Part shown: positions 3,566 through 47,794 of the stretch, one piece after another | How the letters are laid out: each line of letters starts with the position of its first letter | Numbering within the stretch: position 1 is the stretch's first letter | IMG/VR virus record: IMGVR_UViG_3300043080_000590 | Location: 258,386-322,385 of that record | Direction: 5' to 3' (one strand) | Source of the DNA: a virus | Lineage: Duplodnaviria > Heunggongvirae > Uroviricota > Caudoviricetes | DNA: 64,000 bases | Position numbers and translations under genes: made by a program | The notes under the pieces: model-generated | Told to the model about the DNA's origin: nothing | Databases searched by the model: none | Seen by the model: the letters and a program-made list of their open reading frames with translations, nothing else

Positions 3566-3584
3566 TATATTATTAAATTATTCA

Positions 3585-3621
3585 ATATCCCTTATTTCAT
3601 TTAATAAGGGATATTTTTATT
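3585..3621 (+). terminator. Rho-independent terminator
   Basis: Hairpin atatcccttat / ataagggatat followed by a T-run. Confidence 0.6.
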
Positions 3622-3692
3622 AAATTAAAATCACAAGTAATAGTTTTTTTATTTAATATATAAAAGAAAAATAATAAAAGGGTGGTTGCAAA

Positions 3693-4181
3693 ATGAGTTA
3701 TGATATTAAAGGGTTTAATGCTTGTAATCATACTGTAAATAATAAAATTTACGATTATCAACTTTGTCCTAAATGTTATGGTAAGGGATATTATTTTGAT
3801 GTGTATTTTGATAAAGAAGGAAAAATAGCTACAACAACTGATGAAGCCAAATTGCAACAAGAAATGTTAAAGGTTATAATAGACCATAAATATGACAATT
3901 TATTTCATCAAGATTGGGGTAGTCAGTTACATTCATTAATTGGTAGTAAAAACGATACAATAACAAAAAACAAAATAAAAATGTTAGCAAGACAAGCAGA
4001 AGAATATTTACAAAAAGTTCAAGTTGTAGAATTTAATGAAAATAATACATTAGAAGCAACAGAAATAATACAAGATATTGTATCTGTAAACGTAAAAGAA
4101 GTAGGCCCAACAGCTTATTTAATTTCAATAATTGTTTCTAATACGGTTGGAGATGTAATGTCACAGACATTAGAAATTTAA
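3693..4181 (+). CDS. Small baseplate protein (gp25/XkdS-like position)
   Basis: RBS AAGGGTGG. It is a 162-aa ORF immediately upstream of the baseplate-J-like gene. Confidence 0.4.
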   Translation: MSYDIKGFNACNHTVNNKIYDYQLCPKCYGKGYYFDVYFDKEGKIATTTDEAKLQQEMLKVIIDHKYDNLFHQDWGSQLHSLIGSKNDTITKNKIKMLARQAEEYLQKVQVVEFNENNTLEATEIIQDIVSVNVKEVGPTAYLISIIVSNTVGDVMSQTLEI

Positions 4182-4202
4182 AATTATAGGAGGTGAAATG
4201 AT

Positions 4203-7200
4203 TTGATAACTTTAAAAACATTAAACGAAGTTGTACAGGGAATGATAGACAATATACACGATAAAGTACCTAAGGCAGATACCAAGGAAGGTACTTTTTT
4301 AAGAGATGTTTTTATTGACCCTGTTGCAGATGAAGTTGTTGGTTTAAACTTTGATATGAAAATTATGGAAACAAACCAATCAATATTAACTGCTACTGAT
4401 GAAGATTTGGATAGATTGGCTTCAAATTATGGTATAACAAGAAATGAAGCAACAAAATCTTCTGGTTTTATAAGGTTTTATTTTAAATCAACAGATGTTG
4501 ATACTGTTATATATGCTAGTACGGTTGTACAAACAGTTCCAACATATGCAACAGCATCTAAATCATTTACTACAACTAATACAAAAGATATTTATTATGT
4601 AAGTGATAATACTACATTAGACCGTGAACAATATGAGTATTATCAAATAATAAATCTTTCAAATTTAACATTAGGAGATAGTGGATATTACTACTACGAT
4701 GTAGAAGCATTATCTTCTGATACAGGAAGTGCTTATAATGTTAGTGCGAATACAATAATAAGAAAAAGTTCTACACTAGATACCAATATATTAACATTTG
4801 GTAATACCATTGCTTTTACAGGTGGTTCTGATAATGAAACGGATATTTCATTAAGAATGAGAATTAGACTTGCATTATTAGGTGCTAACATTGGTACAAA
4901 ATATGGTTATTTATCTTATGTTTATAATTCAGATTATGTAGAAGATGTAAATGTTGTTTCTGCTGGTGATGCTGATATGCTAAGAGATTTAAATGATAGC
5001 TATGAACATTCAGGCGGTATGGTTGATATATATGTTAAAGGTAAAAAAGCAGATACAGCAACATTTACTTCAAAAATAAGTCTTAACAATCTTGGGTATA
5101 CAGATAGTTACGCATATACCCCATTGGTTATTAATTCAAAAAGAAAACCAATTATAGATATAAATTCAATTACATATAATAGAGTTTTAAGTGACGGTAC
5201 AACAACGACAAGATATTTAAGAAATGCTTCTAATTATGATTATGAAGCCACTTATACTAATTTAACTGAATTAGGCTCTACAATGTTGTTTGAAGATGCC
5301 GATATTGAAGTTACAAGACTTTCACAAATGAGTAAAATAATAGACGAACTTGAAGAAAAGATAAATGACCCACAACAAAATTTTTATGATTTTTTATATT
5401 TAGATTCAGAAAATTCTGCTGGCTATATAGGTGCAGATGGCTCTAATTTAAATGGATATGAACCTGAATATAATGGTTCTAATAAGAATTTTAATGTTTA
5501 TAGTAATTTTTTATATTGTTTACCAGATACAGATATAAAAGCTCCATTTACATATGCAATGTATTATAGATATCTTTATACAGAAAATGGAGATATTACA
5601 GAAGACCAAAAAAGATATTTTGCCATTAAATTTTCTTTTGGTGTTGGTGCTGGTGAAACTGTAACTAATAGTATAGTAAGAGATGAAAATGGTGTAACAT
5701 TATACTACTGTAATAAATCTATTGAAAATGTCGAAGATTTTTCAGAAGAATTAAAAAGATTAGAAGATGAAAATGGTAAGGAAATAAAATTGACTGGTCC
5801 AGTTTTTGATGATAATGGATATGTAGTTACAGAAGGTACAAAGTTTTATACACCTGATTATTCATATAACAACGAAGATGATTGTTATTATTATTCTGTC
5901 GATTCAAGTACTATACAAGACTTTATTGATAAATCTACATTAAGTGGTACAGAAGATTTAGAACAAGGCAATTATTTCTTTTATGTAAAATTTAGTGATG
6001 ATATTTATAGCGGTAATATTATGGGTGATAATTTTACAAGTTATACATCTTATGAATATTATACTATAAAGCAAGAATACATCCTTTATAAGGACGATTT
6101 AGGCGAATGGACTTTTTATACTATAAATGATGACGATTTTGTTTCAGGTGCAAGTATTGATGATAGAATGAAACAAATTATGTATAATATTTGTACTTCA
6201 AATATATCTAATAATATTGTTACAAAATTAACAACAGTTGATAAGTCTATTGATATAGACCAAGAAACTTATGTTGCAGACGTTCATGGTTATATAAAAG
6301 AATATTATGGTGATGGCGAGACAACTAATGATTATTATGAATATTACAATCTTAATTATGAGGGTAATCAAAAACTCCCATATAAATTTACAGTTCATAG
6401 AAATATATATAATGAAATTATTGCTATTGATTTTGTTTTCGCTGTTGAAGATATGGTAAATACTGATGCAGAAGCAGATGCTTTTTACTATTTTCCTAAT
6501 TATGAATATACAATTATTAGATGTTTAGATACTAAAACAAAATTGTATATTTATGAAAAACTAGAAACTCCTAATAAAAATTATTTTAAAGATACAAAAT
6601 TAACTTATTCTAATTTCTTTACTACTTCAAGTACATTATTAACTGAAACAGTAGAACCTTTAGTAAATCAAGGAGTAACAAGTTCTTCCGTGGCTGTTGT
6701 TATTCTTTCTGATTATATTACTGAAACAACTATGCAGAATAATATACTTTTACAATTGAGTAATTATAAAGATAAAATGTTTAATTATAAGTCAGATATT
6801 GATTTTGGTAATGAAACAACAAATACAATAAAAGTTTATAACAAACCATATGTATATGTACAATTAGAATTAACCAATGATGAAAAAATAGTAAATGTAA
6901 AAGTATATGTTAGTTCAATTCCCAATGTTGGTATTGTTAGTTGTCATTTGATTATATATAATACTAATTATGACGATAATGTTGTTGGTTTTATTGATGA
7001 AGAAGCAATTTATTCCACAGATAATAGTGATGCTGACATAAATAATGGAGAGTATTTAGAAAATTATACAATGGTAGACGGTATTATTGATATTACTATT
7101 AGTTCAGATGCTTCTATTTATTATAGAGAGGATAAAGATACTTGTATCTTTGAAAGGAATTTCTATAGAAAAAGTTATGAAAAAGATGGTGAAACTTGTT

Positions 7201-15628: not shown

Positions 15629-18136
15629 TTACTTTTTTAATAATCTCATATCAAACTTTTTAATTTCCCAAGCTTCTTCTGTTCTATATAATTTTTCTCT
15701 TGTTCTGGCGTGTCTACGAAGCATAGGTGTATAATCTTGAAAATCAAACACAATAGCTCTTTTCTTTTCTTTACCTGTTTCAGGATTTTTATATAGTCTT
15801 AATACTCTACCCACTCTTTGAAAAGCTCTTGTGGAACTACGACCACCACCTGCTAATATCAAAATCTCTAAGTTAGGTATGTCAAGTCCTTCATCTGCTA
15901 TTGTACTACCTATTAAGATTTCTACAAAACCATCTCTTACACCTTGAATAACAGCCTTTCTTCTTACAGCATCATCCTTACCTGATAAAAATTCTACATT
16001 AGCAATTCTAACTAATTTATCTTTACCTGTCTTATCATCAGTTACTTGAACTGCTTTTTTTACTATTTCTATCTTTTTAGATAACATTTTTAATATTGTT
16101 TCTCCGTGTTCTACTTGTTGAATTAATATTAAGATAGGTGCGTGTTTTACTTCTCTCATTTTAACTGCTATACTAACAACAATTTGATTTCTTTCTATAT
16201 TATTAGCAATAGCTTCTTTATAAACTTTATTATAAGATTTACCTTGAAAAACTCTTTTGTAAGGAATAAAGTAAATAGTACAAGGCACTAAATATCCCCA
16301 TTCAATAAGTTTGCTTGCTGAAATATCATTTTCTTCTTTTCTTCTATCTAGTGCTGCTTCTAATAATAAATCAGCACCATCTTCTCTCCACGGAGTGGCT
16401 GATACACCAATTCTATAATAAGCATTTTTAGCCCATTTAGATATTTCTACAAATGTATTAGAACCTATATGATGACATTCATCAAATAAAATCATATTAG
16501 AATCTTTAATATCTTCTTCTGTTGTTGATTGAGCAGAATAAACAGTTATATCTCTTTTCTTGTTTATGCCACCACCAACAATACCTACTTCTTCCCCTAA
16601 AAACTTTCCAATTTCATCTTTTAGCTGTGTACATAAAGTTAATTTATCAGCAAAAATTGAAACAGGTCTAACATTAAACTTATCAATTAATCCTGCCATT
16701 ATAAATGTATTATGCGTTACTATAAAATCTTTACAAATAAATGTATGTAATGGACTATCTACTGCTATACACTTCATTTCAGACTTTGTAGGTAATGGAG
16801 TTATTGAAACAATTTTTAAAGCATTATAATGATGATTTTTGCCTATTCTTCTATTCTTAAATCTTTCAGTATGTTTTTTTGATGTAAATAATTTATCATC
16901 ACAGCCACGAACATGAATATACCACGTTTTGTTTCTATATCTATCACTATTAATTGTTCTTTTATCTAATACAATTTTCGCTCTATATCCAAGACTATTT
17001 AATAAAAATTGTACATCTTCTACTAATCGTTTGCTAACGGAACAATAAGTAATATGTCCTTTACTATTTACAGTACCATCTGTATCAAATAGTCCTTGTA
17101 AAAGTGCTATTCTGTCATTAACATCAGAAAATTTATATTCTTCGGGAATAAATTTATCTTCGCTTTTAATTCTTCCAAAAACCTTATGTATATAATCTCT
17201 TAAATTATCTTTTTTTCCACCGCAACCATATGTGTATTGAATCCTGTCTTTATGTCCATTTTTAAATTCTCCACCAAATTGTCTTGCTAAATCTTTTACT
17301 TTATTAATTACATCTTCCTCTGTATTTGTAAAAGTAATTTGTCTTTGAGAAAAGCCACCATCGCCTAATAATGCTCCCAATAAATATGGCGGTAAAAATA
17401 AATCTTTTTTCTCAAACTGAATTGGCTTACATACGGGAATGCTTAGAACTAAATTTCTTCCTGTTTTGATTTTATGATTGTTTAATATTTCTTCAACAGT
17501 TTTTACTTGCCATTTATTTTTTGAAAGATTGTCTCTTGTTGCAAATTTCCATAAATGATTTTTACAACATTTAATAGTTGTACCATCGTTAAATACTATT
17601 TCATATTCTTGTTGCTCACCTTGTGGATATTCTCCGATAACAGTTGTTTTATCTCCATTTTCATCAAAAACAATACTTCCTACGTGAATATCTTTTAATG
17701 GAACAAAACCATCAGGGGTTAGAATTGGCGTATCTAAGGGAATCGACTTGCCGCCGCCCGTACTGACCCTTACTATTTCCCTGTTTGAGGCGTTATCAAT
17801 TATTTTTTGTTGATAATCTCTCGCTTTTAACTCTACTTTTGAACCATCAGGTAAAGTCAAATATTCTTGTAATGCAAAATTAGCATTTTGTTCGGGTACT
17901 ACTCTTGTATCTGTTATTTTATATCCAATATTATTTTCTTCTAATATTTCATATACATAATTTAATAAACCAGTATAGGTCTTTTTTGTTTTTCTATTGT
18001 ACAAATGTCTTATTTGAATATATTCACAACCAAATTCTTTTACTTCAAAACTTAATTTTTCCCATATCTTTAATTCAATATCTTTTGAAAAACCAATCAA
18101 CTTTGAATATACATTATCAATTATAATTTCTGCCAT
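15629..18136 (-). CDS. SF2 (DExH) DNA/RNA helicase precursor containing an intein
   Basis: Walker A STGGGK|...|T is split by the intein. Motif II is DECHH and motif VI is QRVGRVLR. The extein is about 489 aa. Confidence 0.8.
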   Translation of the reverse strand: MAEIIIDNVYSKLIGFSKDIELKIWEKLSFEVKEFGCEYIQIRHLYNRKTKKTYTGLLNYVYEILEENNIGYKITDTRVVPEQNANFALQEYLTLPDGSKVELKARDYQQKIIDNASNREIVRVSTGGGKSIPLDTPILTPDGFVPLKDIHVGSIVFDENGDKTTVIGEYPQGEQQEYEIVFNDGTTIKCCKNHLWKFATRDNLSKNKWQVKTVEEILNNHKIKTGRNLVLSIPVCKPIQFEKKDLFLPPYLLGALLGDGGFSQRQITFTNTEEDVINKVKDLARQFGGEFKNGHKDRIQYTYGCGGKKDNLRDYIHKVFGRIKSEDKFIPEEYKFSDVNDRIALLQGLFDTDGTVNSKGHITYCSVSKRLVEDVQFLLNSLGYRAKIVLDKRTINSDRYRNKTWYIHVRGCDDKLFTSKKHTERFKNRRIGKNHHYNALKIVSITPLPTKSEMKCIAVDSPLHTFICKDFIVTHNTFIMAGLIDKFNVRPVSIFADKLTLCTQLKDEIGKFLGEEVGIVGGGINKKRDITVYSAQSTTEEDIKDSNMILFDECHHIGSNTFVEISKWAKNAYYRIGVSATPWREDGADLLLEAALDRRKEENDISASKLIEWGYLVPCTIYFIPYKRVFQGKSYNKVYKEAIANNIERNQIVVSIAVKMREVKHAPILILIQQVEHGETILKMLSKKIEIVKKAVQVTDDKTGKDKLVRIANVEFLSGKDDAVRRKAVIQGVRDGFVEILIGSTIADEGLDIPNLEILILAGGGRSSTRAFQRVGRVLRLYKNPETGKEKKRAIVFDFQDYTPMLRRHARTREKLYRTEEAWEIKKFDMRLLKK
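16709..17746 (-). other. Intein (346 aa) with LAGLIDADG homing endonuclease domain inside the helicase P-loop
   Basis: It begins with Ser (SIPLDTPILT...) directly after GGGK. It ends ...FIVTHN and is followed by Thr+1, which restores GKT. The two LAGLIDADG motifs are LLGALLGDGG and LLQGLFDTDGTV. Confidence 0.7.
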
Positions 18137-20060: not shown

Positions 20061-20653
20061 GATGATTTTTAAAATTATTAGTATTAATACGAAATTATAA
20101 TTGATAATGTATATTCAAAGTTAATATTTACTTTCCAGTATATTAGTATTAATACTTTATTTTTTAATAATTCAAAAACAGGTTGGGGCATATTTACTTT
20201 CCAGTATATTAGTATTAATACAATGCAGTGTTAGACGTTGCGACGGCTAAAGTCAAATTTACTTTCCAGTATATTAGTATTAATACTCAGTTACGTTGAA
20301 GCAAGGCAATAAGTCTTTTAATTTACTTTCCAGTATATTAGTATTAATACATTTTATATTAACCTCACTTGCAACAAGCCAATATAATTTACTTTCCAGT
20401 ATATTAGTATTAATACTAAATTCACCTCTTGTTACTCCTCATCATTAGTATCATTTACTTTCCAGTATATTAGTATTAATACGAAGAAATAATGTAACTT
20501 ACGATAAATCTACTTTATTTACTTTCCAGTATATTAGTATTAATACTTTTCAACTGGTGTAAATGCAATATTCACAGCATATTTACTTTCCAGTATATTA
20601 GTATTAATACCCGTTCAGTGTACAGTAGTACATTTTATTAGTATTTGAAATAC
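20061..20653. CRISPR. CRISPR array: 8 identical 30-nt repeats (ATTTACTTTCCAGTATATTAGTATTAATAC) plus degenerate repeats at both ends; about 9 spacers of 34-36 nt
   Basis: Perfect repeats start at 20126, 20192, 20257, 20321, 20387, 20453, 20517 and 20581, with a regular 64-66 nt period and unique spacers. The reverse complement GTATTAATACTAATATACTGGAAAGTAAAT ends in GTAAAT like clostridial type I-B repeats, so minus-strand transcription is possible. No cas genes are present in the window. Confidence 0.85.
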
Positions 20654-20850
20654 TAAATCTGTCGAACCCATTGAAAAGTTAATTCCAAATATTATTTTTT
20701 ATTCATTATTTACTTTATTCTCACAAAAACATAAGTAAATAAAGTGTTTTCAAACTTTCTGTCTATCTCTTAGTAATTTTACATTATTATACATCGACAG
20801 AATTAAAAAACTAAAAAAATAAAAAGTATTTATACTATAATATTGAATTT

Positions 20851-20985
20851 GGTGAGTGGTGGGCTTCTTAGGTCAAAGCGGTGCAAGTCTTAAAGTTCTA
20901 TCGCAAGTATTGAACGATATGTGAAGTGAACTACCCTCACCTTTCGGACGGTAAATCGCCCGAAGTCACCAACTAAGGGTGCTTA
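20851..20985. ncRNA. GC-rich island (about 50% GC in a 27% GC background) with nested helices; candidate structured non-coding RNA of unknown class
   Basis: GGTGAG-t-GG at 20851-20859 pairs with CC-CTCACC at 20933-20940. There is an internal hairpin ttcgg-acgg-taaat-cgcc-cgaa. A TATAAT-like box lies at 20836-20841 just upstream. No ORF is present. Confidence 0.3.
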
Positions 20986-21181
20986 TAAAAAATAGTTTTA
21001 AAAACTTTACAATATTATAATATAATATTTTCCTTAATTTGTCAAGTGTTTTTTGTAAAAAATTGTATTGTTAAAACGTCTCAGAATCAATTTTAAGACC
21101 TATAACGATTTATTGTGAATAAATATTAAGTAAACTATTTATACCCTCTTAAAATTGATTTTAAAACTATTTAAACAATAA

Positions 21182-21215: not shown

Positions 21216-21545
21216 TTGTTGAACTTCATTATCTGTTTCTTCTGCAATTTCTCCCATTTCAGCTTTAACTGCTTCTTTATATTTATTAAAAAACATAGTA
21301 CAATAACTACCAAAGTTTGAAAAATCCGTGCCCATGCTACAATTCGGATTGAAAGGATTGTTAGAATCATTTCCTGGAAAGCAACTATCTGAAATTGTAA
21401 CATTGTTTTCATTTTCAAAACTTTTAATTGCAGTAGAAAAGTTATTCATTACTCTTATTAACTCATTTCTACATAAATCAAATTGACCTTCTAATTCTTG
21501 TGTATTAATCGCAGAAGTTTTCATCAATCTTTTCATTTTTAACAA
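21213..21545 (-). CDS. Hypothetical protein (110 aa)
   Basis: ORF in an intergenic island. It overlaps the spurious ORF 21197-21418 in the other frame. Confidence 0.4.
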   Translation of the reverse strand: MLKMKRLMKTSAINTQELEGQFDLCRNELIRVMNNFSTAIKSFENENNVTISDSCFPGNDSNNPFNPNCSMGTDFSNFGSYCTMFFNKYKEAVKAEMGEIAEETDNEVQQ

Positions 21546-22143
21546 CCTCTCTATTGATTATTTTATAAATAAATATACTACCTAACGAATTTCCCAAAGT
21601 TACAAATAAAATAAATGATATAGAATAAATATTTATTTTATTTGCTAAAAATATATAAAACATATCAGCAACACAGTGTTCAGCACCAATTAAAATAAAT
21701 ACTGCTATACATAATATTACTGCTACTATTTTCATTATTGCTTCATTACTTTTTTTATATACTTCAACTGCAATAAATATTAAAATACCGCATAAAAATG
21801 AAAAAAATAAAATTTCAAAAATAGTATAATTTAATTTCAACTCAACTATTGTTTCTATATTAATGGCTTTTATTTTACAAGTATTTCTATAACACAATGC
21901 TGTAATAAAACATCCAAGCAGATTTCCTATCCATATAATTAATAATTCTAAGGAATTTTCATTCTCAGTAATATAACCAATTTTCCCTGTATACAAATCT
22001 AATTTAAAAAAAAGTATTGTTAGTAATCCTATGGAAAATAAAAAACTGCCGATAATTTTGTCAGTGGATAAGAATACGATACTTGCAATACTAATCATAA
22101 TTCCTGCTAGAAATGCAGATAAAAATAAATTAAGAAATTTCAA
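21505..22143 (-). CDS. Polytopic membrane protein (about 6 TM), possible superinfection-exclusion or abortive-infection type
   Basis: 212 aa that are strongly hydrophobic. It is divergent from the replication module. Confidence 0.45.
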   Translation of the reverse strand: MKFLNLFLSAFLAGIMISIASIVFLSTDKIIGSFLFSIGLLTILFFKLDLYTGKIGYITENENSLELLIIWIGNLLGCFITALCYRNTCKIKAINIETIVELKLNYTIFEILFFSFLCGILIFIAVEVYKKSNEAIMKIVAVILCIAVFILIGAEHCVADMFYIFLANKINIYSISFILFVTLGNSLGSIFIYKIINREVVKNEKIDENFCD

Positions 22144-22149
22144 AATAAT

Positions 22150-22800
22150 CTCCCCTTGCTAAAATTATATCTTAATTTTTATATAAAATAATTTTCAAGT
22201 TTTATAGCAAGAAAAAATAGCTAAAATGACTTCTCTATCTATATTTAAAACTTAGTTTAATTTATCAAACTTTATTTTTATTTGGACATAGTTGAAGTTT
22301 TATCTGGACACTAAATAGATAAGTAATAAATTACTTATCATCTAAATAATTTTTTATATATTAATGAAATTAATTATAAAGTAATATTAATTATAATTAT
22401 ATTAAAAATTTATAATATACAATAATTAATATTAGATGTAATAATTATTAGTATAAGATATACAATTTTTAATATTAAACAAAATTATAAAAAATAATTC
22501 ATTAAAAAATTTATAAGATTTCAGTTTTAAAAAATATAAAGTTTTTTTATTTTTAGAAAAGATAGCAAAAAAGAAAGAACAGGAAGCGGAGAATGCTTCG
22601 CATTGCTCCGCTTAGTCACTTCGTGACTGAAATAACACTGATTTGTTTTGTTGCTTTCTTTCAAAAATAAGAATTGTTGTAATTTTACAATTTATTTAAT
22701 TTACAACCACATTTGTAATATTTTTAGTTTCCATTGAAAAAATTTTCACAAATTCATTATAATACAATCAAAAGCAAAAAAAACATAAGAAAGGTTGGTG
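22150..22800. promoter_or_regulatory. 650-nt non-coding control/origin-like region with direct repeats, palindromic operators, an AT-rich tract and a GC-rich nested hairpin
   Basis: A TGGACA direct repeat is present (atttggacatag / atctggacacta). A palindrome agataagtaat-aaa-ttacttatct lies at about 22318-22345. There is an extreme A+T tract at 22360-22520. A GC hairpin gcggagaatgcttcgcattgctccgc plus gtcacttcgtgac lies at 22585-22632, enclosed by gaaagaa/ttctttc. Inverted repeats ttgtaattttacaa and ttacaaccacatttgtaa lie at 22676-22722. Confidence 0.45.
22734..22763 (+). promoter_or_regulatory. Putative promoter (TTGAAA-18-TATAAT) for the replication operon
   Basis: TTGAAA at 22734-22739 and TATAAT at 22758-22763. 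Confidence 0.4.
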
Positions 22801-22807
22801 TGAAAAT

Positions 22808-24721
22808 ATGAATTATAAAAGAGATTGCAAAAGAAAGAATATATCTTATATATCAATGTCAAAGTATTTGTATTCTCTTGTATTACCAAAATGTAATATT
22901 GTTTTGGGTTCATATTTTACATCTATCTATTTTCAAATATATTTAAATGTTTGTCATGATAAAACATTAGAGTTATGGAAACATAATAAATGTTGGATAG
23001 GACAAGATACAATTTCTAAAATATTAAATTGTTCAAGACAAACAGTAAGTAAAACAATAAATTATTTACTTCAACTTAAACTTATTAGTAAAAGCAAAAG
23101 GGGATTACATAATGTTTATCAACTTGAAAATGATAACATTGAAGAAGAAATAAATTTAGATAAGTTTAATTCTTTTATTGAAACAGAATTATTAAAACTT
23201 GCAAAGGATTTAAAAAAAGATACTTTAAAAATTACAGAGAAATTTAATATTTTAAATTCAGAAGTAGCATATCATAAAGATGGTTTAAAGAAATTTCTTA
23301 CTAAAAAGAAGTTTTATGATACAAATAAGATAAGAAAAGAAATAGCAGAAATTGAAAAAGACAATCAAGGTATAACTATATTTTATTTGAATGATGTTTT
23401 AACAATAAACAATCATAAACAAAAATATAGAGCTATTAGAAATGGTATTAGTCAAAGTTCTATTAGTAAATATATAACTTATTGTGAAAAGCGAGGATTA
23501 TTAAATACTATGAATGAGAAAGTAGAAAAGAAAAAAGAATTTGAATGTCCTATTTGTAAAAATTCTTTTGATACAAATAGAAGTTTATGTATGCACATTT
23601 CAAAGACTAAAGAAAATAATCACATATTATTAAATAAACTTCGTCAAGTAGATAAAACAAAAACTATTTTAGAAGTTTATCTTAATAATAAATCACAGTT
23701 TACAGAAATGGAAGTTTCTTATAAAAATATTGAATGTGAAAATTGTTCAGGTAATTGTAGATTGTGTTACAAAGAATTCAAAGATGAGTTTAAAACTTGT
23801 TCACAAGATAGGAAAAAAGCTTTTGTTAAACAAGAACAAATGTATATTGTTTCTATTGATAAAAAAGAAAAAGCAAAAGTAGCAAAAGCTAAACAAAAGA
23901 AGAAAGATGATATCAATAGTGTTGGTAATTTGATGAAGTATTTTTATGATAAAACGCAAACATTATCACCAAGTTTTTCTAAGGAATGTGGTCAAATAAA
24001 AATTTTATTAAATAAAGGCTATACTGGCGATGAAATAAGAATTACTATGGATTATTTGATAGATAGAAAAAATGTAGATTTACGTTTTATTAATCGTTCT
24101 ATTGAAGATGCTTTAGTAGAGCAAAAATATAAGAATGAATTAAATATGTTAAATACAGCTCCGTATTTAGTAAATCTTTTTCATACTAAGTTAGGGGTTA
24201 AATTAAATTTATTCAATTTAGTTAAAGAAAGTAATAAGATACAACAAGTATTAGATGCAGGTTATTCAGCTTTAGATATTAAAAAAACAATTAAGTATAT
24301 GCAATATAAGGATATTAAAGTACTTAATTATATTCCTAATATGATTGAAGAAGCAATAGATTTTTATGCAGATAAATCATCTGAAAATAATGATAATAAG
24401 AAAATTGAAGATATTGTTAGTGAATTAAGGTTTAGTATGACTTCAATAGAAAATATTGAAGAAAAGTATAAAGAAACGGCATTAAAATGTGCAGAGAAAA
24501 TCTTTATAGATAAATCATACTTTAAAAAAGATTTAACTAAGTTTGAATGGGCTTATACTATTAAATTAAGGTTGACAAAAGATTTAATAAAAGATGGTAT
24601 TAATGAAAAGAATAATAAAAAATGGTTATGTGAAACAAATAATTGTAATTATTCTAAAGAAGATTTTATTAGTTGGCTTAAAACTCAATTTGAAAAAAAT
24701 AATATAGATTATATTTTATAA
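22808..24721 (+). CDS. Replication initiator/organiser-like protein (winged HTH, C2H2 zinc finger, DnaD-like C-terminal repeats)
   Basis: The HTH is QDTISKILNCSRQTVSKTINYL. The C2H2 finger is CPICKNSF...CMHISKTKENNH. It is the first gene of the loader and DnaB operon. RBS AAAGGTTGGTG. Confidence 0.45.
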   Translation: MNYKRDCKRKNISYISMSKYLYSLVLPKCNIVLGSYFTSIYFQIYLNVCHDKTLELWKHNKCWIGQDTISKILNCSRQTVSKTINYLLQLKLISKSKRGLHNVYQLENDNIEEEINLDKFNSFIETELLKLAKDLKKDTLKITEKFNILNSEVAYHKDGLKKFLTKKKFYDTNKIRKEIAEIEKDNQGITIFYLNDVLTINNHKQKYRAIRNGISQSSISKYITYCEKRGLLNTMNEKVEKKKEFECPICKNSFDTNRSLCMHISKTKENNHILLNKLRQVDKTKTILEVYLNNKSQFTEMEVSYKNIECENCSGNCRLCYKEFKDEFKTCSQDRKKAFVKQEQMYIVSIDKKEKAKVAKAKQKKKDDINSVGNLMKYFYDKTQTLSPSFSKECGQIKILLNKGYTGDEIRITMDYLIDRKNVDLRFINRSIEDALVEQKYKNELNMLNTAPYLVNLFHTKLGVKLNLFNLVKESNKIQQVLDAGYSALDIKKTIKYMQYKDIKVLNYIPNMIEEAIDFYADKSSENNDNKKIEDIVSELRFSMTSIENIEEKYKETALKCAEKIFIDKSYFKKDLTKFEWAYTIKLRLTKDLIKDGINEKNNKKWLCETNNCNYSKEDFISWLKTQFEKNNIDYIL

Positions 24722-24744: not shown

Positions 24745-25455
24745 ATGCTGTTTTATAATAAAGAAGAAAAAGAAAAATTAAAATCTAAGTGGAATAATGT
24801 CTTTGTTATAAATTGTACAAAATGTGAGGGTACAGGTTTTTATAATGAAGATGGTAAGACAAAACAATGTTCTTGTATGAAAAAAGCTATTAAATGTTAT
24901 AACTTAGAATTATCTAATATTCCAGTAGTTAATTTTAATGTTTCTAAAGATTCTGTTACTAAGAAAGTTAATTATAATTTTAATGATTACTTTGAAATTA
25001 TACAGAATGAGGTTTTTAAAACTAAAAATCTGTATTTATATAATATTTCATTTACTCTTAATAGTGAAATTGTAGCATATATAGCAAGGACTTTAATTGA
25101 TAAAGAAAATAAATTATCTAAGAAACAATTAAAGATACAATATGTTGTATATGAAGATTTAGTACAATTATCTTTAAAACAAAATTCGGATAAAGAAGCA
25201 AAAGATAGATTAAATGATTTATTCCGCAAGCCTGATGTTTTATTTATAGATAACGTGGGAGCTGAAACAGGTTTTGGTAATACAAGTAAGCATAATATTA
25301 AATTACTACAATTAATTCTTAAAACAAGATATAATGATGTTAAATCTACAATCATATCTTCAAAATTAAATTATTCAGACGTTGAAAAGTTTTACAGCGA
25401 AGATGTAATTGAAATGATTTCGACATATGATTTTGTAAAAGAAGTAGAATTATAA
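24745..25455 (+). CDS. DnaC/IstB-like helicase loader homologue lacking a Walker A motif; N-terminal Cys4 zinc ribbon
   Basis: A Walker-B-like LFIDNVGAE is present but no GxxxxGK[ST]. The Cys cluster is CTKCEGTG...CSC. It is positioned directly upstream of dnaB. Confidence 0.4.
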   Translation: MLFYNKEEKEKLKSKWNNVFVINCTKCEGTGFYNEDGKTKQCSCMKKAIKCYNLELSNIPVVNFNVSKDSVTKKVNYNFNDYFEIIQNEVFKTKNLYLYNISFTLNSEIVAYIARTLIDKENKLSKKQLKIQYVVYEDLVQLSLKQNSDKEAKDRLNDLFRKPDVLFIDNVGAETGFGNTSKHNIKLLQLILKTRYNDVKSTIISSKLNYSDVEKFYSEDVIEMISTYDFVKEVEL

Positions 25456-25483: not shown

Positions 25484-26830
25484 ATGGACAATGTAATAGA
25501 GAAAAAGTTTTTAGCATACTTAATGTATGATAAAAAGTATATTTCTAAAGCAATAAATACAATAGAAATAACACCCAAGCATTTACAAACAACATATGCA
25601 GTATATAGTTTAATAAGAAAATATTTTGTAAAATATGGTGTTATTATTTCTGATGATGCAATAAATAGTTCTTTTAAAAAGAATAAAATTGATGATAAGA
25701 CGATAATAACGTATAAATCAATTTTTTCAGATATAAAATATTTTAATACTGATGAATTTTCAGATGGTGAATTTGAATCTATTTGTGATGAATTAGAAGA
25801 TAATTATAAAAGATTCGAAGTATTAGAATTAGCTGAATCAATTATTACTAAAGGAAGTAATTGTAGTGAAAAATCTTTCGATGAATTAAAAACTCAAATA
25901 AGTAAATTGTCTGTTCGTTTGAATACAGATAAAAGTAATGTAAAGGAAGAGGGTTCAATCCAAGAAAGAATAAAAGCAAGAAAAGAAAGATATGAGGAAA
26001 TAAAGAACAATCCTAGTATGATTGTTACTTATCCCACTGGATTTAGTAGAATTGATGATGAAAGCGGTGGATTTGCACCAAGTGAACTTATTTACATAAT
26101 AGGTAGAAAAGGTGATGGTAAATCTGTTTTAATGCTTAACTTAGCACACAATATGTGGATAAAAGGATTAAATGTTATATTATTTAGTTTGGAAGTTCCA
26201 CAAGAAGCTTATGAAAGAAGATTTGATGCAAGAGCTGCTGGTATTTCAAGTAATGGATTAAAATTTGGCAAGTTATCAGAAGATGAAGAAGAAGTATATA
26301 ATGATTATTTGCAAAAATTAAGTGAAGGCTTATCTATCAATGGAGATAAAGTTGGTACAATGTATATTATTGACGTACCACGTATGTGTACTCCATCTTT
26401 TTTAGCCGAGAAAGTAAAAGAAGTAGAATTAAAAATGGGAATAACATTTCATGTAGTTATTTCTGACTATGCAGGTATTATGCAACCAGATATGAAATTT
26501 GGTGAATTAAGATTAGACCAAGCAGAAATAGCATTGGAATTAAAACAATATGCAAGAACAACAGATAAGGTAGTAATAACCGCCGCACAGATGAACAGAA
26601 TAGGTAAAAATCAAAAGAAAACAGAAACAGATGCTATTGCTGAGTCTGATGCTATTGCAGACCATATAGATTGGGGTATTGCTATAAAAAAAGTTAGTGA
26701 ACAAATTGGCATAATAGAATCATTTAAAACAAGAGATGCTGCTCCTTTTGAGTTTCATTTTAATAGAAAGTTTAGTAAAATGTTAATTGAAGAATTAGAT
26801 GATGATATTAGTAACTGGGATAAAATGTAA
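25484..26830 (+). CDS. dnaB: Replicative DNA helicase, DnaB family
   Basis: Walker A GRKGDGKS, Walker B IIDV..., and the H4 motif ITAAQMNR. It has a DnaB-like N-terminal domain. Confidence 0.8.
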   Translation: MDNVIEKKFLAYLMYDKKYISKAINTIEITPKHLQTTYAVYSLIRKYFVKYGVIISDDAINSSFKKNKIDDKTIITYKSIFSDIKYFNTDEFSDGEFESICDELEDNYKRFEVLELAESIITKGSNCSEKSFDELKTQISKLSVRLNTDKSNVKEEGSIQERIKARKERYEEIKNNPSMIVTYPTGFSRIDDESGGFAPSELIYIIGRKGDGKSVLMLNLAHNMWIKGLNVILFSLEVPQEAYERRFDARAAGISSNGLKFGKLSEDEEEVYNDYLQKLSEGLSINGDKVGTMYIIDVPRMCTPSFLAEKVKEVELKMGITFHVVISDYAGIMQPDMKFGELRLDQAEIALELKQYARTTDKVVITAAQMNRIGKNQKKTETDAIAESDAIADHIDWGIAIKKVSEQIGIIESFKTRDAAPFEFHFNRKFSKMLIEELDDDISNWDKM

Positions 26831-26853: not shown

Positions 26854-27432
26854 ATGGAATTTAAAAACAAAAAGTATTTATATGATTATGTAAAATCAGA
26901 AATAAATAATATGGCTTATATACAACAATTTGTACCTTTAAAGAAAACAGGATTAGTATTTAAAGGTAAATGTCCTTTTCATACAGAAAAGACTGCTTCT
27001 TTTACTGTTTATCCAACTGGTTATACAACTAAGAAAGGTGTTCAAAATTATACAAGCTTCTATTGCTTTGGTTGCGGAGCAGCAGGAGATATAATTAAAT
27101 TTAAACAGTTAAAAGATAATATTGATTCATATTCAGAAGCTGCCTTACAATTAGCAGAAGAATATGGATTAAATGTTGTTGATGAACAAGATGTAAAAAT
27201 GAATTATTTAAAAAATAAATTGTCTTTAGGTGATAATGAAAAACTTTTAAGTTTTGAAGATATCAATTTAACTTGCAGTATGATTATTCATAACTATTTA
27301 AAACACCATCCTAATGATATGAGTAAAGTAAATGATATATTTATTTATTTAGATAATGAATTAAATGAAAGAAATACTATTGAAGCACAAAGTCTAATTC
27401 AAGAAATTGATGATAAAGTAAATAATCTTTAA
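26854..27432 (+). CDS. DnaG-type primase zinc-binding (CHC2) domain protein; no TOPRIM or RNA-polymerase domain
   Basis: The CHC2 finger is CPFHTEKTASF...CFGCGAAGDIIKF. The protein is only 192 aa. Confidence 0.6.
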   Translation: MEFKNKKYLYDYVKSEINNMAYIQQFVPLKKTGLVFKGKCPFHTEKTASFTVYPTGYTTKKGVQNYTSFYCFGCGAAGDIIKFKQLKDNIDSYSEAALQLAEEYGLNVVDEQDVKMNYLKNKLSLGDNEKLLSFEDINLTCSMIIHNYLKHHPNDMSKVNDIFIYLDNELNERNTIEAQSLIQEIDDKVNNL

Positions 27433-27994: not shown

Positions 27995-30250
27995 TTGATA
28001 ATCAAGACTTTACATTTAAAAGGTTTCACTTCATATATTGATTCTGAAATGACTTTTGATACAAATGATAAGTTTATTGCAACTATTACAGCTCCAAACG
28101 GTTCTGGTAAATCTTCTATACTTGAAGCTATTACTACTGCTTTATTTTATAGAGCAAGAGGTGTAGATAGTAGAGGTACAGGTATGGATGACCTAATAAA
28201 CAATGAATGTGATTCTTTTGAAATTACATTAGAGTTTATTATGGATAATAATGATTATAAAATAATTAGAAAGAAAACAAGAGGTGGAAAACATGAATTA
28301 GAGTTTTTTGTCAATAATGTATCTCAAACAGAAAAGATAAATGACACACAAGATAAGATAAATAAAGTTATTAAAATGAACTATGATACATTTTTAGATA
28401 CTGTTTGTATTGGACAGGGTAAGTCTGATAACTTTATGAAGAAAAAGCCTAATGAGAGAAAAGATGTATTTGTTGAAATTCTTAATTTAAATCAATTTGA
28501 AGTATTAGAAAAACATACTAAGGATTTAAAGAAAGAGTTATCTACACAACTTATTGAAAAAGAAAATACTTTATATTTGTTGCAGGACAGTGTAAGTAAA
28601 GAAGATGAATATAATTCCTTAATTACTCAATATTCTTCTTATGCTAAAGATTTTAATAATAAAATATTAGATAAGGAAATAGAATTAAAGAAAGTAAGAG
28701 AAGAAAAAGCTCAATATGATTTAATTATTAAACAGAACGAACAACTTTTAAATCATAAAAAGAATATTTATTCTTCTATCAACAATACAAAGAATAAAAT
28801 ATCTACTACTGAAAATAAAGTTAATTCTTTTAATACTAAAATAAATAATTTAAAAGTTAAGTTTGTTAATAATAAGAAGAATATTGTTAATTATCAAGAG
28901 AATATAAAAGAATATGAGGAAGAATTAAATAGTATTGTTATTGAAGAAACAAATGATGATAAGACTTCAATAAATAATCAGATAGAAGAAATATTACAAC
29001 ATAAGAATGATTTAGAAACAGAAAAGACACAGCACTTAACTAATATTAAATCATTTAAGAACCAAATTGCTGAATATAAAACACAGTATAATAATTTAAA
29101 TGAATATAATAAGGGTGAATGTGAATTTTGTGGTAATGAAATTACTGCTGAACATAAAGAAAAACATTTAAATGATTTAACTAAGAAGATAAATGCTCTT
29201 ACTGAGAATATTGAAGAAAATAATAAACTTTGCGAAGATATTGTTGGTAAGGTTAATGAATTAAAAACTAAATATGTTTCTTATAAAAATGCTTTAAATG
29301 ATATTGATGAAAAAGTAAAAGAAATAAATAAATTAAAAATACGACAAGAGAAATTAAATTCTGCTATTTCTAATTATACGGATAAGATAACTTCTTTAAA
29401 AGAAGAAATGGCTGAAATTAAAGAACAAAAGACAGAGTATGATAATGAAATTATTTCTTTAAATAAAGAAATAGAAGATTTAAAAAATGAATTAATAGAT
29501 TTTAACAAGCAGTATGAAGAATGTAGTGTTGAAGAAATTGAAACTAAAACATTTAATGATGGTGAGTTAGAATTTGATATTTCTAATTTAAGAGATAAAT
29601 TAGTAAAGGCTGAATCTAACAAAGCTGTTTATGAAGAAAAGATAGTGGAAATAAATAATAATAAACAGAAATTAAATGAAGTATTGAAAGAAATTGAAGA
29701 TATAACTACGCAAATATCTGACTATGAATCTTTAATTGAAGCTTTCGGTAAGAAAGGTATACAAGCTAATATTATTGCTAATGTATTACCTGATGTAGAG
29801 AATGAAATAAATGAAGTATTAGATGTTTTATTTAATAATTCTACTACAATAGAATTTATTACGCAGAAAGACGATAAGAAAACAAAAGCTAAGAAAGAAA
29901 TATCTTTAGAAACATTAGATATAGTTATTCACGATAAAGATAGAGATAGAAATTATGAAACTTATAGTGGTGGAGAAAAGTTCAGAATCGACTTTGCGTG
30001 TCATATAGGTATGGCTAAATTCTTAGCTAAGAGAGCTAAAGCTAATATAGAGTTCTTTATGATTGATGAGGGATTAGGTAGTCAAGATGATGAAGGTAGA
30101 GAGAATTTTATATTAACTGTAAATAAGTTAAGTGATATGTTTAAACAGATATTTATAATTACTCATATAGATGAAGTAAAGGATGCTTTTGATAAAAAGA
30201 TAATTATAAATAAAGATAATGTTTATGGCTCAAAAATTGAAGTACTTTAA
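27995..30250 (+). CDS. SbcC/Rad50-family SMC-like recombination ATPase
   Basis: Walker A APNGSGKSS, a long coiled coil, a zinc hook CEFC, the signature YSGGEKF and the Walker B/D-loop FFMIDEGLGSQDDE. Confidence 0.75.
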   Translation: MIIKTLHLKGFTSYIDSEMTFDTNDKFIATITAPNGSGKSSILEAITTALFYRARGVDSRGTGMDDLINNECDSFEITLEFIMDNNDYKIIRKKTRGGKHELEFFVNNVSQTEKINDTQDKINKVIKMNYDTFLDTVCIGQGKSDNFMKKKPNERKDVFVEILNLNQFEVLEKHTKDLKKELSTQLIEKENTLYLLQDSVSKEDEYNSLITQYSSYAKDFNNKILDKEIELKKVREEKAQYDLIIKQNEQLLNHKKNIYSSINNTKNKISTTENKVNSFNTKINNLKVKFVNNKKNIVNYQENIKEYEEELNSIVIEETNDDKTSINNQIEEILQHKNDLETEKTQHLTNIKSFKNQIAEYKTQYNNLNEYNKGECEFCGNEITAEHKEKHLNDLTKKINALTENIEENNKLCEDIVGKVNELKTKYVSYKNALNDIDEKVKEINKLKIRQEKLNSAISNYTDKITSLKEEMAEIKEQKTEYDNEIISLNKEIEDLKNELIDFNKQYEECSVEEIETKTFNDGELEFDISNLRDKLVKAESNKAVYEEKIVEINNNKQKLNEVLKEIEDITTQISDYESLIEAFGKKGIQANIIANVLPDVENEINEVLDVLFNNSTTIEFITQKDDKKTKAKKEISLETLDIVIHDKDRDRNYETYSGGEKFRIDFACHIGMAKFLAKRAKANIEFFMIDEGLGSQDDEGRENFILTVNKLSDMFKQIFIITHIDEVKDAFDKKIIINKDNVYGSKIEVL

Positions 30251-30775: not shown

Positions 30776-30814
30776 TTTGGTTATTAGCTATAAGTAAAAA
30801 CCTTCTTTCAAGAG

Positions 30815-30851
30815 AAATGTAGATAAGTATTTTGCTTATCTACATTTTTTA
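30815..30851 (+). terminator. Rho-independent terminator
   Basis: Hairpin atgtagataag(tattttg)cttatctacat followed by TTTTT. Confidence 0.7.
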
Positions 30852-36208: not shown

Positions 36209-37762
36209 ATGTTGAGATTGACAACAAAAGGGAAAATTGCCATTTTAATTTTGCTTTTAATTATTATTGGCGTAGCAGGATTCTTTGGTGTAAAAAAGGG
36301 TTGGATTAAGACAGGTAATATTAAAGAAAAGATTGAAAATATTACTTCTTCTGTTGGTTCAACAAGTAAGGCAAGTAAGAGTAAAACAACGCAGGAAAAG
36401 ACCAATGTAATCAATTTATCTTATGACGAATGGACAGGGTGGAAAGAGATTTTAGATGCTCAATCAAGAGGATATTATGATGAAGAAGGTATTACTGTTA
36501 ATATCAGTGTAATGAATGATGCTACTGATAGTTCTAATGCTTTAATTAGCGGAGATTTAGATGCAGCAGGTTATACTGTTAATAGATATGCTTTCTTAAT
36601 GGATAAATTCAAGCAGAACAATGTTGATGTTGCAATGCCTATTATTATTAATAGAAGTAGCGGAGGTGATGGCATTATTGCTGATGCTGATATCAATTCT
36701 ATTAAAGATTTAGTAGGTAAAAAGGTTGGTGTTCCAAGATTTAGCGAAGCACAAACTTTAGTTGAATGGTTTGTTTCTAAGTCTGATTTAACAGACGATG
36801 AAAAGAGTAAAATAGAATATGTATATTTTGATACACCTGACGAAACTGCAAGTGCTTATTTCGCAGGTGAAATAAATGCTGCTGCTACTTGGCAACCATA
36901 TTTAACACAAGCACAAGAAAGCACAGATAGTCATATTCTTATTGATACAAGCAATGCTACAAGTCTTGTATTGGACGGTATTGTATTTAGACAGGATTAT
37001 CTTGATGTAAATGCAGATACAGTTGAAAAGTTCATCAGAGCTACTTTAAAGGCTTATGATGATTACAACGATACTGATTATACAGCATTAAGAAATAATA
37101 TGTCTATGTTTTCAAGTATGAGTGATGAAGAAATTGCTGATACATTACCTGATGCAACATTATTAAATTGGAATGAAAATATGGAAGTATTAGCCGATGA
37201 AGCTGTTATTCTTTATAGAGATATGTCTAATATTTGGAATGATTTAGGAGAAACAGCTTATCCTGATATGGCAGAACAAGCATTTACTACTACATATATG
37301 AGTGCTTGTGAAGATTTAAAAACTGCTGATATAAAAACTGTTTCAGTTACAGCAGAACAAAAGGAAGAAGTTAAGAATAATTCAGATAATTATGATGCTT
37401 TAATAAATGCACAAGCAACAATTAACTTTAAGGCAAATTCAGCAGTATTTGCAGACCAAGAAGAAGCTGCTAAAGCATTAGACGAATTTGTTGATACTGC
37501 TAAAATGCTTGATGGTGCAATTATTATGATTGAGGGTAACTCAGCTAATACAAATGGTGCTACTGAAAATAGTGAGTTTGATATTAAACTTACAGAACAA
37601 AGAGCTAAGACTGTTGCTAATTATTTCATTAGTAAAGGTATTGATAGTTCAAGATTTATTACTGTTGGTAATGGTATTGGTAATCAGATAGCAGATAACT
37701 CCACAGAAGAAGGTAGAGCTAAGAATAGAAGAACTGATATTAAATTCATTATTGCTGAATAA
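36209..37762 (+). CDS. Fusion protein: NitT/TauT-family substrate-binding domain (NMT1/SsuA-like) plus C-terminal OmpA-like peptidoglycan-binding domain
   Basis: It has an N-terminal TM anchor. The SBP region is …DAAGYTVNRYAFLMDK…. The OmpA-C motif is TVANYFISKGIDSSRFITVGNGIGNQIADNSTEEGRAKNRRTDIKF. Confidence 0.65.
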   Translation: MLRLTTKGKIAILILLLIIIGVAGFFGVKKGWIKTGNIKEKIENITSSVGSTSKASKSKTTQEKTNVINLSYDEWTGWKEILDAQSRGYYDEEGITVNISVMNDATDSSNALISGDLDAAGYTVNRYAFLMDKFKQNNVDVAMPIIINRSSGGDGIIADADINSIKDLVGKKVGVPRFSEAQTLVEWFVSKSDLTDDEKSKIEYVYFDTPDETASAYFAGEINAAATWQPYLTQAQESTDSHILIDTSNATSLVLDGIVFRQDYLDVNADTVEKFIRATLKAYDDYNDTDYTALRNNMSMFSSMSDEEIADTLPDATLLNWNENMEVLADEAVILYRDMSNIWNDLGETAYPDMAEQAFTTTYMSACEDLKTADIKTVSVTAEQKEEVKNNSDNYDALINAQATINFKANSAVFADQEEAAKALDEFVDTAKMLDGAIIMIEGNSANTNGATENSEFDIKLTEQRAKTVANYFISKGIDSSRFITVGNGIGNQIADNSTEEGRAKNRRTDIKFIIAE

Positions 37763-45760: not shown

Positions 45761-46268
45761 GAGGTGTTGAATAATATGTATTTGAATTTAACGGACGTTT
45801 TTGACATAGGATGTAATATAGATTGTAATTCTGATTATCTAATAGATAATTTTGATTGGTATGATTTTTGTTATAATCATATTGATTATTATTATGACGA
45901 TGATAATTGTGTAGAGGATTATGATTTTTCAATTTATGAAAAGAAAGATTTAAATATACTGAAAAGTTATTTAACTAATTGTATTGAATTTCCTAATAAT
46001 GGAGATATTCAAAAGTGTTTGGATTTATTTAAAGTTAGAAATATCTCTGAACTTAAAGACAATTATTTAAAAGAACTTAGTCTTTTCCGAGTTACAGACA
46101 ATGTTGAGGAAATTGTTGCAACAATAAAGAATTGTTGTAATTTCAATGTAGAGAGGTTAAAGAAATCAGTTGTAGATACTATTATTGAAATAAGGCAACC
46201 GCAATCTCACTGGCTTTAGACGGTGGGTTAAGGTTGCCAAAAGTATAAAATTGTAGTATAATCTTATT

Positions 46269-46680: not shown

Positions 46681-47794
46681 GTGACAGCGATGTTAAAGGC
46701 ATACAAATACAGGATTTATCCCAATGAAGAACAAAAGATATTGTTAGCAAAAACATTCGGCTGTTGCCGTTTTGTTTATAATAAAACACTTGCATACCGT
46801 AAAGAAAAATATGATAGTGAAAGAAAGTCTGTTAGTAAAACAGATTGTAATAATTACTGCAACAGAGAATTAAAGACAGCATATGAATGGCTGAAAGAAG
46901 TGGATAAATTTGCCCTTACCAATGCTGTTTACAATATGGATAATGCTTATCAAAAATTTTTTAAGGAACATACAGGCTATCCTAAATTTAAAAGTAAGCA
47001 CGACAATAACAAATCATATACAACCAATTATACCAATGGTAATATTGACGTAGATTTTGAGAACGGAAGAATAAAACTCCCAAAACTTAAACAAGTAAAG
47101 GCAAAACTACACAGAGTTTTTGACGGACAAATAAAATCAGCCACAGTTTCACAAGTACCGAGCGGAAAATTTTTTGTATCTGTTCTGGTGGAAACCGAGC
47201 ATAAAGAACTTCCACATAAACAAACGAATATTGGGTTAGATTTAGGAATTAAGGATTTGTGTATAACATCTAATGGTAAAATTTATAAAAATCCTAAAGT
47301 AATAAAAAGGTATGAGAAAATGTTGACAAAGTTGCAAAGACAACTTGCACACAAAAAAAGAGGAAGTAATAATTATTATAAAGCAAGGAAACGGGCTGCA
47401 TTGTGTTATGAAAGAATAAAAAATACAAGAAAAGATTATTTGCATAAAATTTCAAAAGAGATTATAAGCGAAAACCAAGTTATAGTTTCAGAAGATTTGC
47501 AAATAAAAAATATGATGAAAAACGATAATCTTTCAAAAAATATAGCTGATGTATCATGGTATGATTTGACAAGGCAGTTGGAATATAAAGCAAAATGGAA
47601 TGGCAGAGAATACGTTAAAGTAGATACTTTTTATGCAAGCAGTCAAATTTGTTCCGAATGTGGATATAAGAACGCAGAAGTAAAGGATTTGTCTGTTAGA
47701 AAAATGGATATGTCCGAAATGCGGAAAAGAGCATAACAGAGATACAAATGCAGCAAAAAATATATTAGCGGAAGGACTAAGACAAATAGCATAA
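46681..47794 (+). pseudogene. tnpB: IS605 OrfB/TnpB (RuvC-like, Zn finger) with +1 frameshift in an A-run near 47700-47710
   Basis: The ORF stops after ...[15 protein letters not shown]. The +1 frame continues [29 protein letters not shown], which is the canonical TnpB zinc-finger end, down to the stop at 47792-47794. Confidence 0.7.

Follow-up and report, generated by a model that had tools for sequence, protein, structure and literature searches.

The spacer at positions 22144–22807 of a 64,000-nucleotide stretch of viral DNA (the window; positions 258,386 to 322,385 of IMG/VR record IMGVR_UViG_3300043080_000590, Caudoviricetes) is 665 nt long and separates a minus-strand gene for an FNT-like (formate/nitrite-transporter-like) membrane protein from a plus-strand replication operon. 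We read it as a cis-acting control region and probable origin of the replication module, at a probability of about 45%; that this DNA is a functional cis-element under constraint, whatever its kind, is much more certain. The spacer carries, from left to right, a block with two direct repeats and a palindrome, a tract of extreme A+T content and a GC-rich double hairpin. These parts are statistically extreme and are conserved in related phages, and the substitutions that have occurred in the hairpin preserve its structure. A preliminary description of the same DNA had suggested a replication origin or operator complex here; the features that it listed were all found where it had placed them, and the main ones exceed chance expectation. 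The kind of element is in itself ordinary: a spacer that serves a phage as origin or in regulation and has a hairpin of conserved structure, here in an uncultivated phage.

Conserved elements of the spacer

Relatives were found via the initiator candidate, the first protein of the replication operon, and belong to four other lineages: L001, L019 and L020 (82% identity for this protein), L002 (51%), L003 with L021, L022, L023 and L024 (52%; gut and other metagenomes) and L006/L007 (47%). Two further sequences, L004 and L005, are identical to the window. A profile search of a protein database returned the same four clusters, the members of which added L019, L020 and several contigs of the L003 lineage ending short of the hairpin. 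A DNA similarity search of 50,697 phage records gave no match, a search for the locus based on the initiator found none in metagenome or genome contigs and only L006 in viral contigs, and a DnaB-based search yielded no additional close relative. Aligned with L001, the spacer shows gaps of 8, 5 and 13 nt; because these lengths are not multiples of three, there is no conserved reading frame, and the region is non-coding, as had been proposed. A small conserved open reading frame (ORF) in the spacer was considered as a candidate and rejected on these indel lengths.

The left-hand element is a conserved, putative operator/promoter block of 112 nt (22253–22364) that is 90% identical to L001, versus 72% identity and 161 gap columns for the spacer outside its two conserved blocks. 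Where window and L001 encode the same amino acid in six flanking genes, the third codon position is 69–83% identical, and the chance of an identity as high as that of the block is 0.003 if neutral identity is 0.80. The block contains two 13-nt direct repeats, TTTTATYTGGACA, at 22276–22288 and 22298–22310 on the plus strand (period 22 bp), which are candidate protein-binding sites or −35-like boxes and are both kept in L001 at unchanged spacing. The TGGACA direct repeats pointed out in the preliminary description (22283–22288 and 22305–22310) are the ends of these two longer repeats. They are followed by a palindrome with 9-bp arms, GATAAGTAA (22318–22326)-N4-TTACTTATC (22331–22339), a candidate operator that was also correctly described; as single-stranded DNA (ssDNA) it folds at −5.7 kcal/mol (z = −4.5). 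In L001, L019 and L020, one arm has changed from G to A and the other from C to T, such that the symmetry is kept. Two rightward promoter-like sites, TGGACA-16-TAAATT (22305–22332) and TTATCA-16-TATATT (22335–22362), overlap the palindrome; both are consensus matches, and the scans found the identical two sites in the window and in L001. The 10-mer TAGATAAGTA, which also forms the left half of the palindrome (22316–22325), occurs within a hairpin with 13-bp arms at 30799–30837, after an SbcC-like gene.

The A+T tract (22353–22552, 7% GC) begins 14 nt past the palindrome, adjoining the repeats, and is a candidate DNA-unwinding element. No other 200 nt of the window have as few G/C as its 14 (next lowest value 28; mean 51.8, sd 9.3). 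In each relative, too, the lowest-GC 200 nt falls in the equivalent spacer, with 12 G/C per 200 nt in L001, 7 in L002, 1 in L022, 13 in L006/L007 and 35 in Bacillus phage G, and in the four close lineages this stretch abuts the hairpin. The long A+T-rich tract of the preliminary description is thus extreme in every phage compared. At its right end, directly left of the hairpins, lies a conserved A/T block, CAGTTTTAAAAAATATAAAG...TTTTATTTTTAGA (22520–22553, plus strand).

The double hairpin consists of hairpin 1 (22584–22613), AAGCGGAGAATGC-TTC-GCATT(G)CTCCGCTT, with 13 bp, one bulged base and a 3-nt loop, and of hairpin 2 (22614–22628), AGTCAC-TTC-GTGACT, which has 6 bp, abuts hairpin 1 and is identical in L001. 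The two share the same 3-nt loop closed by C-G, TTC on the plus strand and GAA on the minus strand, where hairpin 1 contains GCGAAGC. The RNA fold of −23.9 kcal/mol over 60 nt is the best of 12,789 plus-strand segments of that length across the 64 kb (mean −5.85, sd 3.33 kcal/mol), and comparison with shuffled sequences gave z values on the two strands of −4.2 and −4.3 for RNA and of −4.9 and −5.9 for DNA. On the minus strand, GCGAAGC and CACGAAGTG form C-G-closed GNA loops, which are stable ssDNA hairpins (−16.1 kcal/mol). Counting stems of 4 bp or more, there are three C-GAA-G hairpins in 128 kb (both strands), and two of the three are hairpins 1 and 2. The segment 22584–22638 is 91% identical to L001, with five differences: four of them make up two A-T to G-C swaps at base pairs of hairpin 1, and the bulged base accounts for the remaining one. 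The same two compensatory pairs set the window apart from L019 and L020. An unpaired stretch to the right, GAAATAACAC (22629–22638, plus strand), is identical in the window, L001, L019 and L020.

Arms reading GAAAGAA (22573–22579) and TTCTTTC (22656–22662), already recorded as bracketing the hairpins, could close a helix around them. A consensus fold of the window and L001 predicts this 7-bp closing helix, giving a closed multi-helix junction on the plus strand; its support is weak because the arms are of low complexity and the register of pairing differs between the two sequences. The heptamer CTGTTCT stands directly after the hairpin in the window (22576–22582, minus strand), in the L003/L022 lineage on the opposite strand (373 in L022, plus strand) and in L018, i.e. 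phage G (4553, minus strand); it occurs 10 times in the 128 kb of the window and is missing from the closest relative, L001.

The spacers of the more distant lineages cannot be aligned with that of the window, yet the layout repeats. In L001, L002, L003 and L007, the strongest 60-nt fold of the locus lies 180–390 nt upstream of the initiator start codon, in sequences that are unrelated. In L002, a GC hairpin precedes an A+T hairpin of 16 bp; L003/L022 has two GC-rich hairpins, and L006 has a long hairpin and, about 120 nt to its left, another. The conservation of the hairpin in relatives, on which the preliminary description had made its proposal depend, is therefore seen at two levels: as compensatory change in L001, and as an equally dominant hairpin in the equivalent place in three more distant lineages. 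The order A+T tract, hairpins, promoter region, gene is found in the window, L001, L002 and L022, where the sequence can be read; in L006, what can be seen is limited to the hairpin and an A+T tract on its right side. Six contigs from two lineages (L003, L021, L022, L023, L024 and L006) break 130–700 nt upstream of the initiator gene, at differing positions within a tract of about 0.5–7% GC. The contig of L006 is 101 kb long, and these breaks are probably due to assembly dropout in A+T-rich sequence rather than to a genome end.

To the right of the hairpins, the predicted promoter of the replication operon, TTGAAA-18-TATAAT (22734–22763, plus strand), is of the sigma-70 type and matches 11 of 12 consensus positions (10 of 12 at the aligned position of L001); the 5' leader of the operon is also conserved in L001. 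The inverted repeats ttgtaa/ttacaa, which had been remarked on for their place beside a putative promoter, are present at 22677–22690 and 22701–22718, but they fall in a stretch of the spacer for which L001 shows no conservation.

The case for an origin and the other explanations

The genes downstream of the spacer are replication genes. The spacer lies directly upstream of a gene for a 637-aa winged-helix (HTH_36) protein (22808–24721), the replication-initiator or organiser candidate, in the window and in all relatives. The N-terminal domain of this protein matches PHROG families 8102, 270 and 391 ('replication initiation protein') and Pfam HTH_36. It is the first product of a replication module, all on the plus strand, that continues with a DnaC/DnaI-like AAA+ loader (24745–25455), a DnaB-type helicase (25484–26830), a CHC2 zinc-finger (DnaG-type) primase (26854–27432) and an SbcC-like protein (27995–30250), and with which a long block of plus-strand genes opens. 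The placement upstream of a replication operon and between divergent gene blocks, as given in the preliminary description, thus holds. Among sequenced phages, the sole relative of the 637-aa protein is gp224 of phage G (25% identity over 98% of the length), and phage G keeps the order gp224, gp225, gp226 (helicase) and gp229 (primase).

Protein binding, unwinding and the start of replication are what we infer from this arrangement. A DNA-binding protein would sit on 22253–22364, the candidate being the adjacent winged-helix protein, alone or with a repressor, and the occupied block would overlap the two rightward promoter-like sites. The 200-nt tract of 7% GC would act as the unwinding element, onto which the DnaC/DnaI-like loader would place the phage DnaB helicase. 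The double hairpin at the right edge of the tract may form a structure-dependent boundary, halting or pausing non-coding transcription across the tract; once the duplex has opened, the hairpins may be extruded as two very stable stem-loops marking where the bubble ends. The operon for initiator, loader, helicase and primase would be driven by the TTGAAA-18-TATAAT promoter, which lies about 100 nt to the right of the hairpins.

Several observations weigh against this reading. DnaA boxes (TTATCCACA, up to 2 mismatches) are absent from 22144–22807. The TTTTATYTGGACA repeats number two, which makes no iteron array (three or more); no further copy was found in the region at up to one mismatch, and the motif is not enriched across the window (8 matches vs 11.6 expected). 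The word iteron-like, used in the preliminary description, is not borne out by two repeats, and no iteron array was found inside the initiator gene. Promoter-like matches in the region are not in excess (13 vs 16.3 ± 5.2 in shuffled sequence), and a search for motifs shared across lineages gave matches at chance level only. The GC skew of the window provides no independent origin signal because it merely tracks gene orientation, and better origin candidates may lie elsewhere in the genome of about 500 kb, of which 64 kb were examined. Phage G has no strong hairpin at the equivalent position. The initiator assignment itself combines a weak N-terminal HTH match (E = 4e-6) with gene order, and a structure search with the protein returned no related solved structure. 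The covariation in hairpin 1 is based on two distinct sequences only, because L019 and L020 are almost identical to L001. Of the earlier suggestion of an origin or operator, the constrained non-coding elements have stood; DnaA boxes and a cross-lineage motif are wanting, and the origin remains the best-fitting interpretation. A DnaA-dependent origin of the oriC type was considered separately and rejected, as the spacer holds no cluster of DnaA boxes.

It is possible, if somewhat unlikely, that the spacer serves in transcription control only, with no origin. The conserved block would then serve early genes as operator and promoter, the A+T tract would be ordinary promoter-rich spacer DNA, and the double hairpin would act as intrinsic terminator or insulator, for the minus strand or for both directions, ending a short non-coding or spurious transcript ahead of the adjacent transcription unit. 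Strong intergenic hairpins in this phage are normally terminators (A-run, stem, T-run), and like a terminator the hairpin pair is a GC-rich stem-loop with T-rich sequence nearby, the stability of which has outlasted a full turnover of sequence between lineages. On the minus strand, the hairpin has a T-rich tail in the window (TTCCTGTTCTTTCTTTTTTG), L001 (TTTTCTTCTCTTTCC) and L002 (TTTTATTATTTTATTTTT), the last of which looks canonical; on the plus strand, the combination of hairpin and T-run is canonical in L003/L022 and fair in L002. A terminator scan flagged 22599–22583 on the minus strand, but the flagged site is a partial alternative stem, and no terminator was called in L001. In the window and L001, moreover, there is no T-run directly after the stem, and in these two and L002 the hairpin lies between divergent genes, hence no gene ends there. 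The 13 typical terminators of the phage have an A-run, a moderate stem, a T-run and loops of 5–8 nt and lie at gene ends, whereas the hairpin pair is far richer in GC than these, is doubled and has 3-nt loops. In neither the window nor L001 is there a minus-strand promoter-like site on the right-hand side of the hairpin, and a terminator leaves unexplained why the extreme A+T tract of each locus adjoins it. A gene for a minus-strand small RNA, for which lambda oop is a parallel in placement, was also considered, and was rejected on the same lack of a promoter-like site.

The hairpins could instead belong to a structured RNA, either a cis-acting leader, transcribed from a rightward promoter upstream, that modifies RNA polymerase or the translation of the operon, or a small regulatory RNA, although this is unlikely. 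Two-hairpin put RNAs of phage HK022, which bring about processive antitermination, are a possible parallel for such a leader, and the plus-strand operon has many terminator-like hairpins that a read-through device would have to pass. The compensatory nature of the stem changes, the closed junction of the plus-strand consensus fold with its conserved unpaired GAAATAACAC, and the conserved rightward promoter-like sites upstream of the hairpins all fit an RNA. Against it, the operon owns a good promoter downstream of the hairpins, no G-U pair distinguishes the strands in the stems of the window and L001, and the distant relatives differ in sequence and in loop type. No match to the region was found in Rfam 15 at gathering thresholds, and the best one at E up to 10 scored 17.8 bits vs a threshold of 112. 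A covariance model built from the two sequences found no other copy in the window or the relatives, its weak matches being ordinary terminators, and scans for the exact pattern of the hairpin gave no match in viral or metagenome contigs.

It seems more improbable still that the hairpins act as minus-strand ssDNA signals once the tract opens, a primase or loader recognizing the two C-GAA-G mini-hairpins as an initiation signal; a hairpin promoter as in phage N4 is a less likely version of this explanation. In its favour are the C-G-closed GAA loops on the minus strand with GCGAAGC in hairpin 1, the side-by-side position of two of only three such hairpins in 128 kb, the DNA fold of −16.1 kcal/mol (z = −5.9) and the primase encoded in the adjacent operon. 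Comparable mini-hairpins have been described: those of the G4 primase site and RSF1010 ssiA have GAA loops, and in the N4 early promoters a stem of 5 bp carries a loop of GAA or GGA (PMC13037366). After a single substitution in L022, pairing survives only as G·T on the minus strand. The loops of other lineages differ (TTTT in L002, CTAG or AAA in L003, TTTTAA in L006), however, no N4-type RNA polymerase turned up in the window, and the evidence for one strand over the other is circumstantial. A broader proposal, which we regard as unlikely, is that repeats and operator, a tract of at most 7% GC and the double hairpin together make up the lytic origin of a clade of huge phages resembling phage G, in which the abutting C-GAA-G stem-loops, exposed by melting as ssDNA signals, direct the primase or helicase loader. 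If true, this would be a hairpin-signalled theta origin, of a type undescribed for tailed phages with a DnaB/DnaC-type replisome.

To our knowledge, and as far as a literature search on phage G showed, no origin has been mapped in huge phages of at least 500 kb. The spacer provides a concrete, conserved candidate, in which parts for binding, unwinding and a hairpin boundary lie beside the genes that would act on them. Its confirmation as an origin module would give replication studies a landmark, which could also help to estimate in-situ replication of the clade from read depth, and would define a small structure-conserved element that belongs to no existing family; if the spacer is merely a promoter and terminator region, it is routine.

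The phage and other features of the window

The window has a GC content of about 25% and encodes tape-measure-like and baseplate proteins and an amidase endolysin, a gene content typical of a phage. The phage is a huge one, because a protein identical to the initiator candidate is encoded on a metagenomic contig of 502,690 bp. Strong Shine-Dalgarno sequences and the wall-binding domain of the amidase suggest a low-GC Firmicutes host. On the left of the spacer, the FNT-like membrane protein (21505–22143, minus strand, 212 aa; Pfam PF01226, E = 4e-25) is transcribed away from it, and its gene has an equal position in L001, L019, L020, L004 and L005. A promoter-like site for this leftward gene, TTGAAA-18-TAAGAT (22169–22198, minus strand), is a consensus match with its −10 part within a conserved 30-nt block (22159–22188). 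A protein of the FNT family is an unusual auxiliary gene product in a phage, and is possibly a holin-like membrane protein.

Further to the left, a CRISPR-like array (20099–20650) comprises eight full repeats (core ATTTACTTTCCAGTATATTAGTATTAATAC) that recur every 64–66 nt and are separated by unique spacers, with degenerate copies at about 20076 and 20633; in L001, there are only 3–4 repeats, with other spacers. A search of 185,579 reference genomes gave no match to the repeat, a search of the unassigned ORFs of the window gave no Cas protein, and there is no Cas gene near the array. Non-coding DNA to the right of the array (20612–20990; 2650–3030 in L001) is about 93% identical to L001, above the value for coding DNA. 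It includes a GC-rich element (20848–20990) in which a 10-bp long-range helix, GGTGAGGGTA/TACCCTCACC, encloses inner hairpins with compensatory changes, and in which a segment of about 20 nt (20866–20886) is wholly different between the window phage and L001. This element, which matches no Rfam family, may be a structured RNA, part of which is variable and resembles a guide.

Several mobile or interrupted genes are also present. A TnpB-like gene (46681–47736) has OrfB_IS605, HTH_OrfB_IS605 and Cas12f1-like TNB domains, and about 450 nt upstream of it lies the second most stable local fold of the window (46181–46240); gene and fold may be an IS200/IS605-type element inside the phage. A group I intron (50356–50657; Rfam RF00028, 52.6 bits) lies between ORFs 50012–50347 and 50659–51666, and probably splits a topoisomerase gene, because the second ORF carries a DNA gyrase B domain. 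A helicase gene at 15629–18136 (minus strand) is interrupted by a LAGLIDADG intein; in L002, this helicase is encoded by two genes on opposite strands (203–1132 and 3308–4279), each with intein-splicing matches, which may be due to a split intein or to a rearrangement. The product of ORF 36209–37762 joins an NMT1/THI5-like periplasmic-binding domain to a C-terminal OmpA/MotB-like domain, an odd fusion for a phage.

Comparison with known origins and spacers

The spacer before gp224 of phage G resembles that of the window in that it is non-coding (745 nt), precedes a homologous initiator and is followed by a matching gene order; a 17-nt direct repeat occurs in it in two copies (period 21 bp) and is followed by the lowest-GC stretch of that locus and, beyond this, by a short segment rich in GC. 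It differs in its milder tract (35 G/C per 200 nt), in the lack of a strong hairpin and in the co-directional orientation of the upstream gene. A literature search found no characterisation of this spacer.

The lambda origin has iterons with a neighbouring A+T-rich segment (PMC12663957), and in RSF1010, hairpin signals with a CGAAG-type mini-hairpin flank the A+T-rich part of oriV (PMC13037366). As in these iteron-type theta origins, direct repeats in the window adjoin an A+T segment near an initiator gene, the order here being repeats, A+T tract, hairpins. Unlike lambda, the window has two repeats rather than four, and they are located outside the initiator gene, the product of which is unrelated in sequence to the lambda O protein beyond an HTH match.

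The origins of lactococcal Ceduovirus phages (types c2, bIL67 and 923) are non-coding, lie between divergent modules and are flanked by two tandem promoters; the sequence of one type is unrelated to that of another, and the origins function only with a non-coding transcript (PMC7150918). The c2 origins are independent of phage proteins and need the PE1 transcript, whereas here initiator, loader, helicase and primase are encoded next to the spacer. There is no sequence similarity, and the extreme A+T tract and GC-rich double hairpin fall outside the published definition. In common with these phages, the window belongs to a low-GC phage and has a non-coding spacer between divergent modules, with no ORF or ribosome-binding site; it has what may be two same-direction promoters (here the promoter-like sites at 22305–22362 and 22734–22763), the second of which precedes the first early gene; and the sequence between these sites differs from lineage to lineage while the arrangement is kept. 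The Ceduovirus c2 origin is the nearest documented parallel to the spacer described here.

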